Below are positions 8,474-11,186 of a stretch of 63,503 bases of DNA, piece after piece. Position 1 is the stretch's first letter; every line of letters begins with the position of its first letter. The position numbers and the translations under genes are program-made. Source of the stretch: a virus (taxonomy: Duplodnaviria; Caudoviricetes); the IMG/VR virus record IMGVR_UViG_3300034965_000044, positions 1-63,503 of that record; one strand, written 5' to 3'. A model generated the notes under the pieces. The model was not told the DNA's origin, made no database searches, and saw nothing but the letters and a program-made list of their open reading frames with translations.

Positions 8474-8608
8474 AGGGTACACCTCCATAAGGTCGTAAAT
8501 GACCAAACGCTGCACGCCGAGGCGCACAGCTATAATGTAAAATATGAATGAAGTAGGAGGTTGCTCGATCCTCAAGCGCCCACAAATGCGGGTGCGCGGT
8601 TCAGTGTT

Positions 8609-8824
8609 CTATTCGCCAACAAACTCCATGATGATGCGGTGCAGAGCATCAGGCTCGATGGTAAGCGGCAAAATGTCGGCCAGCCGCTCGCCTTCGTCAT
8701 TGTCGATGGTGACATGCATATCCGGCATGGTGCCGGCCAGATAAAAGGCATCCTCCATCTTCTCGACAGTCGTCTGAGATAGGGTAGTGCCGTCAGGATT
8801 GTGAATGCTCAGGGTGTAGGTCAT
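8609..8824 (-). CDS. Small acidic hypothetical protein
   Basis: GGGAG SD; enclosed by an inverted repeat pair. Confidence 0.7.
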   Translation of the reverse strand: MTYTLSIHNPDGTTLSQTTVEKMEDAFYLAGTMPDMHVTIDNDEGERLADILPLTIEPDALHRIIMEFVGE

Positions 8825-8945
8825 GTGTGCGTACTCCCGTGTTAAAGGCACGAGCGCACCCGCATGTGAGGGAGCTTAAGGATCAAGCGTGCTTGACAAG
8901 CCCACAAGGGCAATCCCAGGTTTCCCCGAGATTGCACCGAGAGGC

Positions 8946-9392
8946 TTAGGCTTTCAACGTTGTGATGGGATAGCCGTTGTCGTCATAGTCGGCTTCGACA
9001 ATATCATACCAATCAGCGTTGCCGTCATCGCGCAGCTTGTCGAGCAACGCGAGTGCAGCGGTTTTGCGATCAGCCGGTGACAGCCGGTCAACGGCGCCCC
9101 TGTAGAACAGGTCGGTTCTGGGTCTGCCGTCCTCATCGACAAGGCCCATCCATTCGGCCGCCTTTGTGGTGTTGCTGAGGTCGATCCAGTTGTCTTTGTC
9201 CTTGCCGATATAGCCGGTATGAGCATTCAGCTTGCCCTGCGCATGATTGGCCAGGATATTCGCCCAGCCTGCGAGACATGCGGTGGTGCCACACGGCTCA
9301 TTACGCACAACCCAGTCGGCCATTTGGATAGGCTCGGCCTGCTTGCTGATGGCCTCGATCATCAGATTGATATTGTCCACGTTAACAGTCAT
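8946..9392 (-). CDS. Paralog family member 2
   Basis: MTVNVDNINLMIEAIS...CGTTACLAGWAN...LRDDGNADW. Confidence 0.85.
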   Translation of the reverse strand: MTVNVDNINLMIEAISKQAEPIQMADWVVRNEPCGTTACLAGWANILANHAQGKLNAHTGYIGKDKDNWIDLSNTTKAAEWMGLVDEDGRPRTDLFYRGAVDRLSPADRKTAALALLDKLRDDGNADWYDIVEADYDDNGYPITTLKA

Positions 9393-9498
9393 AGTCACCT
9401 CCATATAGGGCGAGATTGCCCTTGAAGGCTTGTCAAGCTGCTTAGCGCCCACAAGGGCAATCCGGGGAAATCCCCAGATTGCACCGAGAGGCTATGGA

Positions 9499-9918
9499 TT
9501 ATTCGTCGTCGCCTTCGTCATCATCTTTCTGCAGATGCTCAGGCAGCACATCGTTCCACCGGGCTTCGCCAGTGTCGCGAAGCTCGGTGAGCAGCGCGAT
9601 AGCGGCGTTTTTGCGTTCATCGTTGGGCAGATAGTCAGCCCGATAATCGAAGAACAGTGCGCGTTGCTGGTTAAAACCAATGTCCATCCAGTCGGCAGCC
9701 TTCTCAGCATCGCCGAAATCGACCCAGTTGTTATCGATTAAGCCGCGCTGCTGGTCGAGCTTGCCCTGCGCTCCGCTGGCCAGGATGTTGGCCCAGCCCG
9801 CAAGGCAAGCAGTGGTGCCGCACTCAGCGTTCCGGTCCACGAATGTGCCCATGTGAATAGGCTCGGCCTGAGCGCTAATCGCCTCAATCATCAGATTGAT
9901 GTTTGCAACGTTAACCAT
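9499..9918 (-). CDS. Paralog family member 1
   Basis: MVNVANINLMIEAIS...CGTTACLAGWAN...LRDTGEARW. Confidence 0.85.
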   Translation of the reverse strand: MVNVANINLMIEAISAQAEPIHMGTFVDRNAECGTTACLAGWANILASGAQGKLDQQRGLIDNNWVDFGDAEKAADWMDIGFNQQRALFFDYRADYLPNDERKNAAIALLTELRDTGEARWNDVLPEHLQKDDDEGDDE

Positions 9919-10093
9919 AATACACCTCCATAGAGGGCAGAATTGCCCTTGAAGGCGCTAAGCATAGTTTCCAAAATCGAGACTGTAAAAGACGGCACCA
10001 TGATGAGCGGTGCCGTTCATTACAGTCCCGATTCTCACCCAATCGCCTTATGGCGAGGCTCGGGCGACCGACACGCGGCACGCCCAGGCAGTC

Positions 10094-10303
10094 TTATTCG
10101 AACATGAACGTAATACGCAGGATTCGCCCGTCTTCAAGCTTCACGCTAGCTTGGTGCCGGATATGGTCAACAACGCCGCTATCGAAGCGGACATCGCCAA
10201 CTGATTCGGTCACAACTTCCACGATCTCGCTCATCAGCTCATTATCAGAGCTGTAGCAGGTGCCGGAAAGCGGCTTCAACGCGCCTGTGTATGTCTGTGC
10301 CAT
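10094..10303 (-). CDS. Small hypothetical protein
   Basis: GGAGGTG SD; MAQTYTGALKP... Confidence 0.7.
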   Translation of the reverse strand: MAQTYTGALKPLSGTCYSSDNELMSEIVEVVTESVGDVRFDSGVVDHIRHQASVKLEDGRILRITFMFE

Positions 10304-10433
10304 GGTCTTCACCTCCAAGCGGGATAAGCCCCGCCATAAGGCGATCAGGTGAGGGAATGATTCACGATGTGGGGCATCGCCAGTGTGATTGAGAGCCTGC
10401 AAGGGCAGCCGATTGGCTGCGCCGAGAGGGGAA

Positions 10434-10619
10434 TCAGTAGTCATCGACCCAATGCGGCTCAGGTTGGTCCGCATCATACCAATCCGTGAAGATTTTTGGA
10501 TTGAATTTGGCCTTTTCACTCGCTTCACAGTCCTCGCATACGAATGTGCAGAAGATACCAGCGGCGTCCGTCAGCTCATAGCGGGGCTTGTCATTCTCGC
10601 AACGAAAGCACGTCTTCAT
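10434..10619 (-). CDS. Small Cys-rich hypothetical protein
   Basis: CFRC...DAAGIFCTFVCEDC; GGAGG SD. Confidence 0.75.
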   Translation of the reverse strand: MKTCFRCENDKPRYELTDAAGIFCTFVCEDCEASEKAKFNPKIFTDWYDADQPEPHWVDDY

Positions 10620-10716
10620 AGTTCATTCCTCCAAGGGTTGCCCTTGAAGGCTCTCAATCATGTGAATGCCCTGTGAGCCGGAGCCGGGCCGAAGCCCAGC
10701 GCCAACTTGCCGACGC

Positions 10717-11124
10717 CTAAGCGTCCGCAAACATGTCCTTCGTCTTGCCCTTGGCCGTCACCGTGGCTTTCTTGGCCTTGGTGGCTTCACGGGTGGCTAC
10801 AGCCTTAGCAGTCTTCGTCGCCTGCGCAGCAAGGCCGTCCTCGATCTCCTCAGCAGTGCGCTCACGCGCCTTGCCCAGGATTGCTTGCACGTCTGGCAGC
10901 ACCTGCTCCGCATTGGTCAGCGCGTACATAGAGGCACGCTGTGCCGGCGTCAGGGACATGATCTTGGCTTGCAGACGTGCAAGCTTCAAGGACATGGTGC
11001 CTTTCAATGCAATCGTGATCTCCTCGGGCTTTGCCGCCGGGAACTTGTCCTGTAACGTCTTGGCGACGGCGAGGACAGAGCGCATGGCTGCAACGACTTC
11101 GAGCAGTTCGATTGAATAAGACAT
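10717..11124 (-). CDS. Helical Ala/Lys-rich protein, first gene of the early operon
   Basis: GGAGGTG SD; basic AK-rich C-terminus. Confidence 0.75.
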   Translation of the reverse strand: MSYSIELLEVVAAMRSVLAVAKTLQDKFPAAKPEEITIALKGTMSLKLARLQAKIMSLTPAQRASMYALTNAEQVLPDVQAILGKARERTAEEIEDGLAAQATKTAKAVATREATKAKKATVTAKGKTKDMFADA

Positions 11125-11186
11125 GGGTATCACCTCCATAGGACGGAAATAGCTCCGCCTCACAGGGCATCCACATTCACCAACGA

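Follow-up and report, generated by a model that had tools for sequence, protein, structure and literature searches.

In phage T7, early messages are cut by RNase III at intergenic sites, each a local hairpin containing internal loops. Pairing between message ends is found in the type I toxin mRNA hok, which folds back 5' to 3' at fbi, and the 3' untranslated region (UTR) of icaR mRNA reportedly contains an anti-Shine-Dalgarno (anti-SD) sequence and represses. In synthetic toehold switches, a hairpin hides the ribosome-binding site, a single-stranded toehold admits the cognate strand and orthogonal toeholds give specificity; the promoter plus stem-loop (PeSL) elements of T4-type phages are said to place direct repeats at each gene. 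In bacterial rrn operons, the complementary flanks of each product pair over more than 17 bp (27 bp in the case of Escherichia coli 23S rRNA), and RNase III cuts the resulting helix (PMC10250234). The anti-antisense duplex of DsrA with rpoS both exposes the ribosome-binding site and is itself an RNase III target (PMC2831331), transient Shine-Dalgarno (SD)-sequestering hairpins block translation of the type I toxin mRNA aapA3 during transcription (PMC6733600), and 5'-3' UTR pairing within the icaR mRNA of Staphylococcus aureus has been linked to translation control, in an account that also mentions RNase III (PMC3868564). PeSLs are described as promoter-terminator motifs in a hyperplastic region of variable, mostly unknown early genes, with conserved regulatory motifs and modular shuffling (PMC2839356, PMC4122927). 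Here we describe six consecutive early genes, at 8563-11176 of the phage genome IMGVR_UViG_3300034965_000044 (the window, which is the entire genome of 63,503 nucleotides [nt]), each of which is enclosed by its own long-range inverted repeat, and we find it very probable from the sequence that these repeats function at the RNA level, as helices between the 5' and 3' flanks of each message.

The array resembles rrn operons in that complementary sequences surround the product (here as six helices of 23-35 bp), in that a boxA lies just upstream of the 5' strand (here for the first stem only) and in that pairing is kept by compensatory change (here in one relative genome); the post-boxA helix segment of one real rrn operon is also about 23 bp long, with a near-central mismatch and a G.U pair. 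Unlike rrn helices, those described here surround protein-coding cistrons, six in a row, with no 16S or 23S rRNA and no family matched in an Rfam scan of the window, and they have an anti-SD/SD-mimic core that is predicted to tie them to translation. With T7, the array would have in common a single early transcript from the host RNA polymerase with a processing element at each gene boundary, and T7 processing can alter translation and leaves a protective end structure; in contrast to T7, the two strands of each helix lie here on opposite sides of a gene, 225-500 nt apart. One strong promoter at the head and an inverted repeat around each gene set the array apart from PeSLs, and icaR is a single gene rather than an array. 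A literature search (supplements lay outside its scope) returned rRNA leader-trailer helices, icaR, PeSLs and engineered circular mRNAs, and gave no account, for phages or otherwise, of mRNA cistrons lying in series with a separate helix around every one. We would class the finding as a variation on known kinds, namely processing helices and anti-antisense switches, and not as a new category.

A repeat search recovered all six gene-flanking inverted repeats that had been proposed in an initial annotation of this DNA. Stems 1 to 6 are 35, 25-27, 23-25, 27, 25 and 25 nt long, respectively, with 86-92% Watson-Crick complementarity between arms separated by 225-498 nt, and every pair brackets exactly one open reading frame (ORF) with a GGAGG-type SD; the distance from the 5' arm to the start codon is 11-43 nt, and that from the stop codon to the 3' arm is 7-35 nt. 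Stem 4, which had been given as 30/32 nt, is present but shorter, at 27 contiguous pairs, as the extra bases require a bulge. Neighboring stems had also been described as abutting directly, which is exact between 9438 and 9439; the junction placed between 10660 and 10661 differs, in that both stems can share the base at 10660. When the genome was scanned for repeats of at least 20 nt and at least 84% identity lying 100-1500 nt apart, seven were found, six of them these stems and the seventh a 21-nt pair at 43270/43870. Dinucleotide-preserving shuffles (n = 20) contained 0 or 1 repeat each, and 83 unrelated loci totaling 753,833 nt contained 26, or about 1 per 29 kb, compared with 6 in 2.6 kb here.

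The mismatches within the stems favor pairing of the transcribed (minus) strand. Together, the six stems comprise 146 Watson-Crick pairs, 10 minus-strand G.U pairs, 1 plus-strand G.U pair and 7 other combinations (binomial p = 0.006), and our recount of transition-type mismatches was identical to the 10 of 11 first reported. As two of the ten fall in a core common to the paralogous stems 2 and 3, the independent count is 8 of 9. Five of the six duplexes are more stable as minus-strand RNA, and all six stems are present in the minimum free energy (MFE) structure of the whole 2756-nt minus-strand transcript, stem 2 being partly formed (15 of 27 pairs). When each of the six 5' arms was combined with each of the six 3' arms, the cognate combination was always preferred, with a margin of about 10 kcal/mol or more (9.7 at the least). 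Adjacent arms are noncomplementary except in part at the junction of cassettes 3 and 2 (-33.5 kcal/mol, compared with -43 and -47 kcal/mol for the cognate stems). Two outer helices also appear in the whole-transcript MFE structure: 13 pairs at 11209-11221/8496-8508, which would surround all six cassettes, and 11 pairs at 11178-11188/10375-10385, which would surround cassettes 6 and 5. Both may be due to chance.

One full relative of this phage was found. A pattern scan with the core shared by several stems returned 36 loci, of which BLAST showed 35 to be chance matches and 1 to be real: an IMG/VR genome of 63,852 nt and 58.5% G+C (G001). By tblastx, G001 is collinear with the window end to end, with amino acid identity of about 25 to 81% among the matches listed, mostly 45-80% in structural and replication genes. 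Directly after an equivalent promoter and leader, it has eight consecutive bracketed cassettes (4434 to 8000), and a strict repeat scan of its full genome gave six repeats, all inside this array. All eight stems are present in the MFE structure of its 3632-nt transcript, with 11-29 pairs each, and their G.U pairs number 12 on the minus strand and 4 on the plus strand. Pooled over both genomes, 22 of 27 are minus-strand G.U (one-sided binomial p about 8e-4), or about 19 of 24 without the positions common to paralogous cores.

The layout is thus kept between the two phages, and the genes within it are not. Six frames stand against eight, and cassette 4 has the sole homologous pair; all-against-all BLASTP of the window and G001 cassette proteins gave no other, and the first-cassette proteins have no significant similarity (E = 4.6). 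The stem-less early genes farther along the operon are conserved in G001 (tblastx identity of about 36-53%), which makes the bracketed block a hypervariable island with conserved sequence on either side. Beyond the shared gene, the G001 frame homologous to cassette 4 (L079:5489-6008) contains an extra 65-amino-acid ORF with its own AGGAGG right after the stop codon; this two-gene frame looks like a gene insertion into an existing frame.

Comparison of homologous frames revealed compensatory changes in two stem pairs. Stem 1 and the last stem of G001, which hold unrelated proteins of 71 and 127 amino acids, share 19 identical pairs and differ by 7 double compensatory and 3 one-sided changes, with 3 broken pairs (2 at the outer end). 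For stem 4 and its G001 homologue, the corresponding numbers are 20 identical, 2 double compensatory, 2 one-sided and 3 broken (2 at the outer end), so that the two comparisons combined give 9 double compensatory and 5 one-sided changes versus 2 internal breaks. Stem 5 and the second G001 stem have the inner 16 bp and nearly the whole 5' UTR in common, and the outer 9 bp and the gene are wholly different. Within the window, the UTRs of the paralogous cassettes 2 and 3 agree in 36 of 47 and 44 of 56 columns, compared with 259 of 447 coding columns. The selection on minus-strand RNA pairing that the initial annotation had put forward is supported by the G.U bias (10 of 11 here, 12 of 16 in G001), the kept layout and the compensatory changes, and its exchangeable gene-plus-stem cassettes by the six and eight frames with one shared family and by homologous frames with unrelated genes. 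On these alignments, the stems evolve by compensatory change, and the frames outlive their genes. In a public DNA run, nine contigs, none longer than a few hundred letters, match this stretch (the eight listed have 35-230 letters each), and they contain no ends or joints. One low-coverage contig, from a related phage, has T in place of C at 8566, so that a G.U pair of stem 1 becomes A-U on the mRNA; this is a single datum, and the partner position is uncovered.

Blastn of 8000-12000 gave no match in the phage collection, and tblastn with the cassette 3 protein gave one weak match, in Agrobacterium phage JP1 (31%). In IMG/VR, neither the TerS-like protein nor the cassette 3 protein, each used alone as query, had a match, and a search with a protein alignment (A1) returned 1 weak IMG/VR locus and 13 distant JGI metagenome loci (L002-L014), with none among GTDB genomes. 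Gene-bracketing repeats (18 nt, 82%) were absent from those distant loci, apart from one 22-nt pair in L004. Portal and large terminase scans of IMG/VR identified, besides G001, only a 5.8-kb fragment (L015), and the best homologues of cassettes 2 and 3 are the Logan proteins P0002-P0009 (50-66% identity). Rhizobium phage RHph_TM3_14A was set aside as a relative: its large terminase is 32% identical, its genome plan is different and it has 2 long-range repeats in 50 kb.

The initial annotation had noted a core common to three stems, which we found in stems 2, 3 and 5; it had overlooked that this core is an anti-SD sequence, which in our folding models points to a translational switch as a main function. 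When the 5' UTRs were folded alone, the center of the 5' arm paired with the gene's own GGAGG. We examined this in 14 cassettes (6 from the window and 8 from G001). In 11 of 14, folded as transcripts that lack the 3' arm, pairing of the SD with the 5' arm reached P >= 0.75, and in a short context (arm to AUG+60) SD-arm pairing occurred in 9 of 14, compared with 8.8% of 420 shuffled arms (binomial p = 4e-7). The anti-SD motif is CCUUC in five cassettes and otherwise CCUU, UCUUC, CUUCC, CUCC or CUC, and it is central (positions 9-18 of arms of 21-31 nt) in 10 of 14. Opposite it, the 3' arm has an imperfect SD mimic (GUGGG, GCAGG, CAAGG, AAGG and others), with GGAG or GAGG present in only 2 of 14 3' arms. 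Both the shared core and the near-central mismatch would follow if the 3' arm must pair with the anti-SD yet not become a ribosome-binding site itself.

Addition of the 3' arm was predicted to make the start region more accessible. The mean energy needed to open positions -15 to +3 was 9.3 kcal/mol without the 3' arm and 7.0 kcal/mol with the native one, being lower in 12 of 14 cassettes (Wilcoxon p = 0.0009), and when shuffled 3' arms were used instead (four for each cassette), it remained at 9.3 kcal/mol. Each cassette has its own sequence in the outer 8 nt of the 5' arm; these were mostly unpaired (P >= 0.58) in 9 of 14 nascent folds and could act as a toehold. Local SD hairpins range from -11 to -22 kcal/mol and the long helices from -40 to -60 kcal/mol, the distal pairing being the stronger. 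We give a switch that releases the SD an even chance of being correct.

The nearest published mechanism is, by analogy, that of DsrA-rpoS, in which likewise an upstream strand masks the ribosome-binding site and a second strand pairs with the masker and frees the site. The activator of rpoS is a separate, Hfq-requiring small RNA, whereas here the gene's own 3' flank would act in cis. As in hok and aapA3, long-range 5'-3' pairing would set the translational state of the finished mRNA; unlike in those messages, where it silences the full-length mRNA until 3' trimming, here it is predicted to activate. Synthetic toehold switches are engineered and work in trans, whereas those proposed here are natural and predicted to work in cis.

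The leader of the array strengthens the analogy to rRNA stems that had been drawn for these helices. A 16-nt element at 11183-11198, 6 nt before the first stem, matches the E. coli rrn boxA 12-mer with no more than one mismatch, as no other site in the window does, and this rrn boxA consensus agrees with that in PMC2724277 and PMC5725501. An exact search of GTDB with the 16-mer gave at least 120 matches, of which most are noise, since about 277 chance matches are expected. Among the 120 matches listed, 4 are followed after 187-213 nt by the 5' end of 16S rRNA, a fifth belongs to a locus that ends within the 16S start, and 10 have less than 300 nt downstream and cannot be judged for 16S; the three named loci among those five are Rhodospirillales-type Alphaproteobacteria. 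Two of these loci have a 16S leader-trailer helix whose leader strand begins within a few nucleotides of the end of the 16-mer and whose other strand is the trailer beyond 16S. The order in the phage is the 16-mer, 6 nt and the 5' arm of stem 6, and in G001 a 14/16 variant, 3 nt and the arm. As the 16-mer is identical to the rrn boxA of some Alphaproteobacteria, the host is probably an alphaproteobacterium. By analogy with the established role of boxA (PMC10250234, PMC5725501), the operon is probably transcribed by a Nus-modified, Rho-resistant polymerase. We also likened the 5' arm of stem 6 to the rrn leader strand after boxA and dropped the comparison, as the resemblance is weak and absent in G001.

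Two further settings of this element are recorded here as side observations. At three loci in Tagaea and Azospirillum genomes (L091, L128 and L138), the 16-mer follows a TTGACA-type promoter, has no 16S downstream and is followed by several GTCAACG-like words; a prophage or a further Nus-dependent operon may lie there. A promoter and a boxA-like word with 15 of the 16 letters are also present in two related, AT-rich phage contigs of IMG/VR (L081:8671-9121 and L084:96-546) that have no similarity to this phage by BLAST. Downstream of the word come two noncoding modules, each about 120-150 nt long and bounded by a separate 20- to 23-nt inverted repeat, and then a cluster of 10 tRNAs above the Rfam gathering score, with an eleventh just under it. 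In these contigs, a boxA leader and processing-type stems therefore head phage tRNA operons too.

Taking the sequence and folding results together, we lean slightly toward a model in which the six repeats are early-mRNA helices that join the 5' and 3' untranslated flanks of each cistron, as counterparts of rRNA leader-trailer helices that act as completion-gated switches in cis and are likely RNase III substrates. In this model, transcription would run from the strong sigma-70-type promoter through the leader with its host-type rrn boxA, where RNA polymerase would probably be converted to a Nus-factor antitermination form that is independent of coupled translation. While a cistron is being transcribed, the anti-SD at the center of its 5' arm (mostly CCUUC) would fold onto its own GGAGG and mask the SD. 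The emerging 3' arm would then pair with the largely free, cassette-unique outer segment of the 5' arm, displace the local hairpin, close the 23- to 35-bp helix and expose the ribosome-binding site, such that only complete cistrons would be licensed for translation. The finished helix, which resembles an RNase III substrate in its length and its near-central imperfection, would probably be cut by the host enzyme into single-gene messages; a cut near its center would remove the anti-SD and thereby make activation permanent, and the inner halves would keep the ends paired or refold as terminal hairpins. Because each gene has its own frame, genes could be gained, lost or replaced without disturbing their neighbors. 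By analogy with known substrates, we regard cutting by RNase III as evenly balanced between true and false, and we think it likely that at least one of the two, SD release or RNase III cutting, takes place. A fuller picture is tentative and, in our estimation, doubtful as a whole: that this phage lineage dresses its early accessory genes as rRNAs, with a copied rrn boxA recruiting the antitermination and chaperone machinery, frames serving as cis toehold switches triggered by the gene's own 3' end, RNase III fixing the active state by cutting off the anti-SD, abutting stems forming a rosette at the polymerase in which newly made 3' arms find their partners, and the frame being the unit swapped between phages.

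Several observations weigh against the completion-gated model. In the full cassette, the probability that the SD is unpaired rises only from 0.13 to 0.21, which is not significant (p = 0.086); opening energy was adopted as the better measure after this result, and both are reported here. Two cassettes showed no drop in opening energy, and stem 6 and the G001 stem Rc4 showed no SD-arm pairing. Several of the 14 cassettes have the common core by descent and so are not independent, and the support for the switch is throughout equilibrium thermodynamic folding of naked RNA, whereas ribosomes and cotranscriptional kinetics could block helices that span 225-500 nt. The plus strand is slightly more stable for one of the six stems here and three of the eight in G001, and the covariation rests on two stem pairs because one full relative was found. 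In the closest of the distant homologues (L002, 66% over 38 residues), there are local hairpins instead; its contig ends within the gene, and a 3' partner may lie beyond that end. An RNase III gene was not found in the phage genome, and cutting would therefore depend on the host enzyme.

Much of the same evidence would be accommodated if the stems were RNase III sites and nothing else, yielding monocistronic mRNAs with paired, protected ends and only incidental complementarity between arm and SD. Helices of 23-35 bp fit the size that RNase III needs, T7 early mRNAs are cut between genes by this enzyme, and the inner halves can refold into terminal hairpins; a boxA followed by a long-range helix also mirrors rrn operons (PMC10250234). 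We nevertheless consider this unlikely, as it leaves unexplained the excess of central anti-SD sequences over shuffled arms, the avoidance of a perfect SD in the 3' arm (2 of 14 hold one) and the common core around unrelated genes. Helices that stay uncut and act as clamps, whether by insulating the fold of the cistron, protecting it or bringing stop and start together so that ribosomes recycle on the same cistron, seem quite improbable to us: the start and stop codons are near enough to the arms (11-43 and 7-35 nt) to be spatially close once a helix forms, but 8 to 12 bp would suffice for clamping, and in most bacteria RNase III would be expected to cut a nearly perfect helix that makes at least two turns. 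For the E. coli 16S leader-trailer helix, a role independent of RNase III is described (PMC10250234).

The exchange of genes raises the question of whether the repeats act in DNA, as recombination or mobility signals of the kind seen in the terminal repeats of miniature inverted-repeat transposable elements (MITEs), in attC-like sites or in inversion substrates, with RNA pairing as a by-product. The two phages, collinear elsewhere, have almost entirely different genes in the array, homologous frames contain unrelated genes and cores are common to several cassettes, all of which such signals could account for. However, a strand bias of 22 of 27 in G.U pairs is meaningless in double-stranded DNA, the link to the SD is an RNA feature, and recombination between inverted arms would invert a gene and not move it. 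Unlike integron attC sites, whose arms lie side by side, or MITEs, the arms here flank the gene, have unique outer parts and abut with 0-2 nt between them, with no target-site duplications; we judge an origin of the pattern at the DNA level very unlikely. Circularization of the messages, which the initial annotation had also suggested, is scarcely credible. Paired 5' and 3' ends would sit adjacent after cutting, but neither RNA ligase (PF09414) nor RtcB (PF01139) was found in the phage, both families being detected in control genomes, and the ends produced by RNase III, a 5' phosphate and a 3' hydroxyl, are staggered by 2 nt and do not form a nick. To our knowledge, RNase III ends are not RtcB substrates. 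The completion-gated model remains the one we favor; the features of the array are collected in Table 1.

The stretch 8563-11176 opens a leftward (minus-strand) operon that diverges from a TerS-like gene at 11315, in a genome whose structural genes are of podovirus type (large terminase, portal-type connector, large internal virion proteins and tail fiber). The promoter at its head ranks first among six promoter-like sites (sigma-70-type) in 5000-12500, and G001 has TTGACA-17-TATAAT at the matching position. Within the array, there is one weak internal candidate, at 9989-9961 (9/12, compared with 11/12 at the head), and no promoter per gene. This candidate, TTTACA-17-TATGCT, overlaps the local hairpin between cassettes 4 and 3, which has a GC-rich tip and is followed by UCUUUU; the element at 9961-10033 could serve to terminate transcription in part, to allow local processing in the style of T7 or to start a second transcript. 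The genes from 8473 to about 6334 are without long-range stems, and a strong terminator-like hairpin on the minus strand at 6290-6325, with 16 pairs and then a T-rich tail, probably terminates the early-left operon. Pfam and PHROGs assigned no function to any of the six cassette proteins.

Table 1. Leader elements, stems and genes of the bracketed array, in order of transcription
Feature	Position	Strand	Basis
Early promoter, TTGACA-17-TATACT with TG extension	11240..11268	-	11/12 consensus matches
boxA-like leader element, 16 nt, 6 nt upstream of first stem (stem 6)	11183..11198	-	E. coli boxA comparison and GTDB scan
Stem 6, 5' arm	11152..11176	-	22 pairs in whole-transcript MFE
Cassette 6 gene, 135 amino acids, no family	10717..11124	-	
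Stem 6, 3' arm	10660..10684	-	Repeat search, duplex energy, whole-transcript MFE
Stem 5, 5' arm, anti-SD CCUUC at arm positions 11-15	10636..10660	-	
Cassette 5 gene, 61 amino acids, Cys-rich, no family	10434..10619	-	
Stem 5, 3' arm, imperfect SD mimic GCAGG	10386..10410	-	
Stem 4, 5' arm	10327..10353	-	27 pairs in whole-transcript MFE; G001 homologue
Cassette 4 gene, 69 amino acids, sole cassette gene common to G001	10094..10303	-	54% identity, E = 3e-23
Stem 4, 3' arm	10034..10060	-	Repeat search, duplex energy
Local 25-bp hairpin, terminator-like core, between cassettes 4 and 3	9975..10033 (arms 9975-9999 / 10009-10033)	-	Repeat search and sequence
Stem 3, 5' arm, anti-SD CCUUC	9940..9964	-	
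Cassette 3 gene, 139 amino acids, paralogue of cassette 2 gene (phrog_30739, function unknown)	9499..9918	-	
Stem 3, 3' arm, SD mimic GUGGG	9439..9463	-	
Stem 2, 5' arm, anti-SD CCUUC	9412..9438	-	
Cassette 2 gene, 148 amino acids	8946..9392	-	
Stem 2, 3' arm	8891..8917	-	Repeat search, duplex energy
Stem 1, 5' arm	8854..8888	-	32 pairs in whole-transcript MFE; G001 last-stem homologue
Cassette 1 gene, 71 amino acids, no family	8609..8824	-	
Stem 1, 3' arm	8563..8597	-	Repeat search, duplex energy

If the completion-gated model is correct, this operon would have an organization that lies outside the textbooks, in which each cistron is an RNA domain closed by a long helix and translation is conditional on completion of the cistron. 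It would tie three well-studied host systems, Nus/boxA antitermination, RNase III and SD sequestration, to early gene expression in phages, and it would account for the shuffling of hypervariable accessory genes as a block while the expression of neighboring genes is left intact. The frames are small (about 25 nt per side), orthogonal and self-contained, and they could serve as natural insulator or switch parts in synthetic operons.

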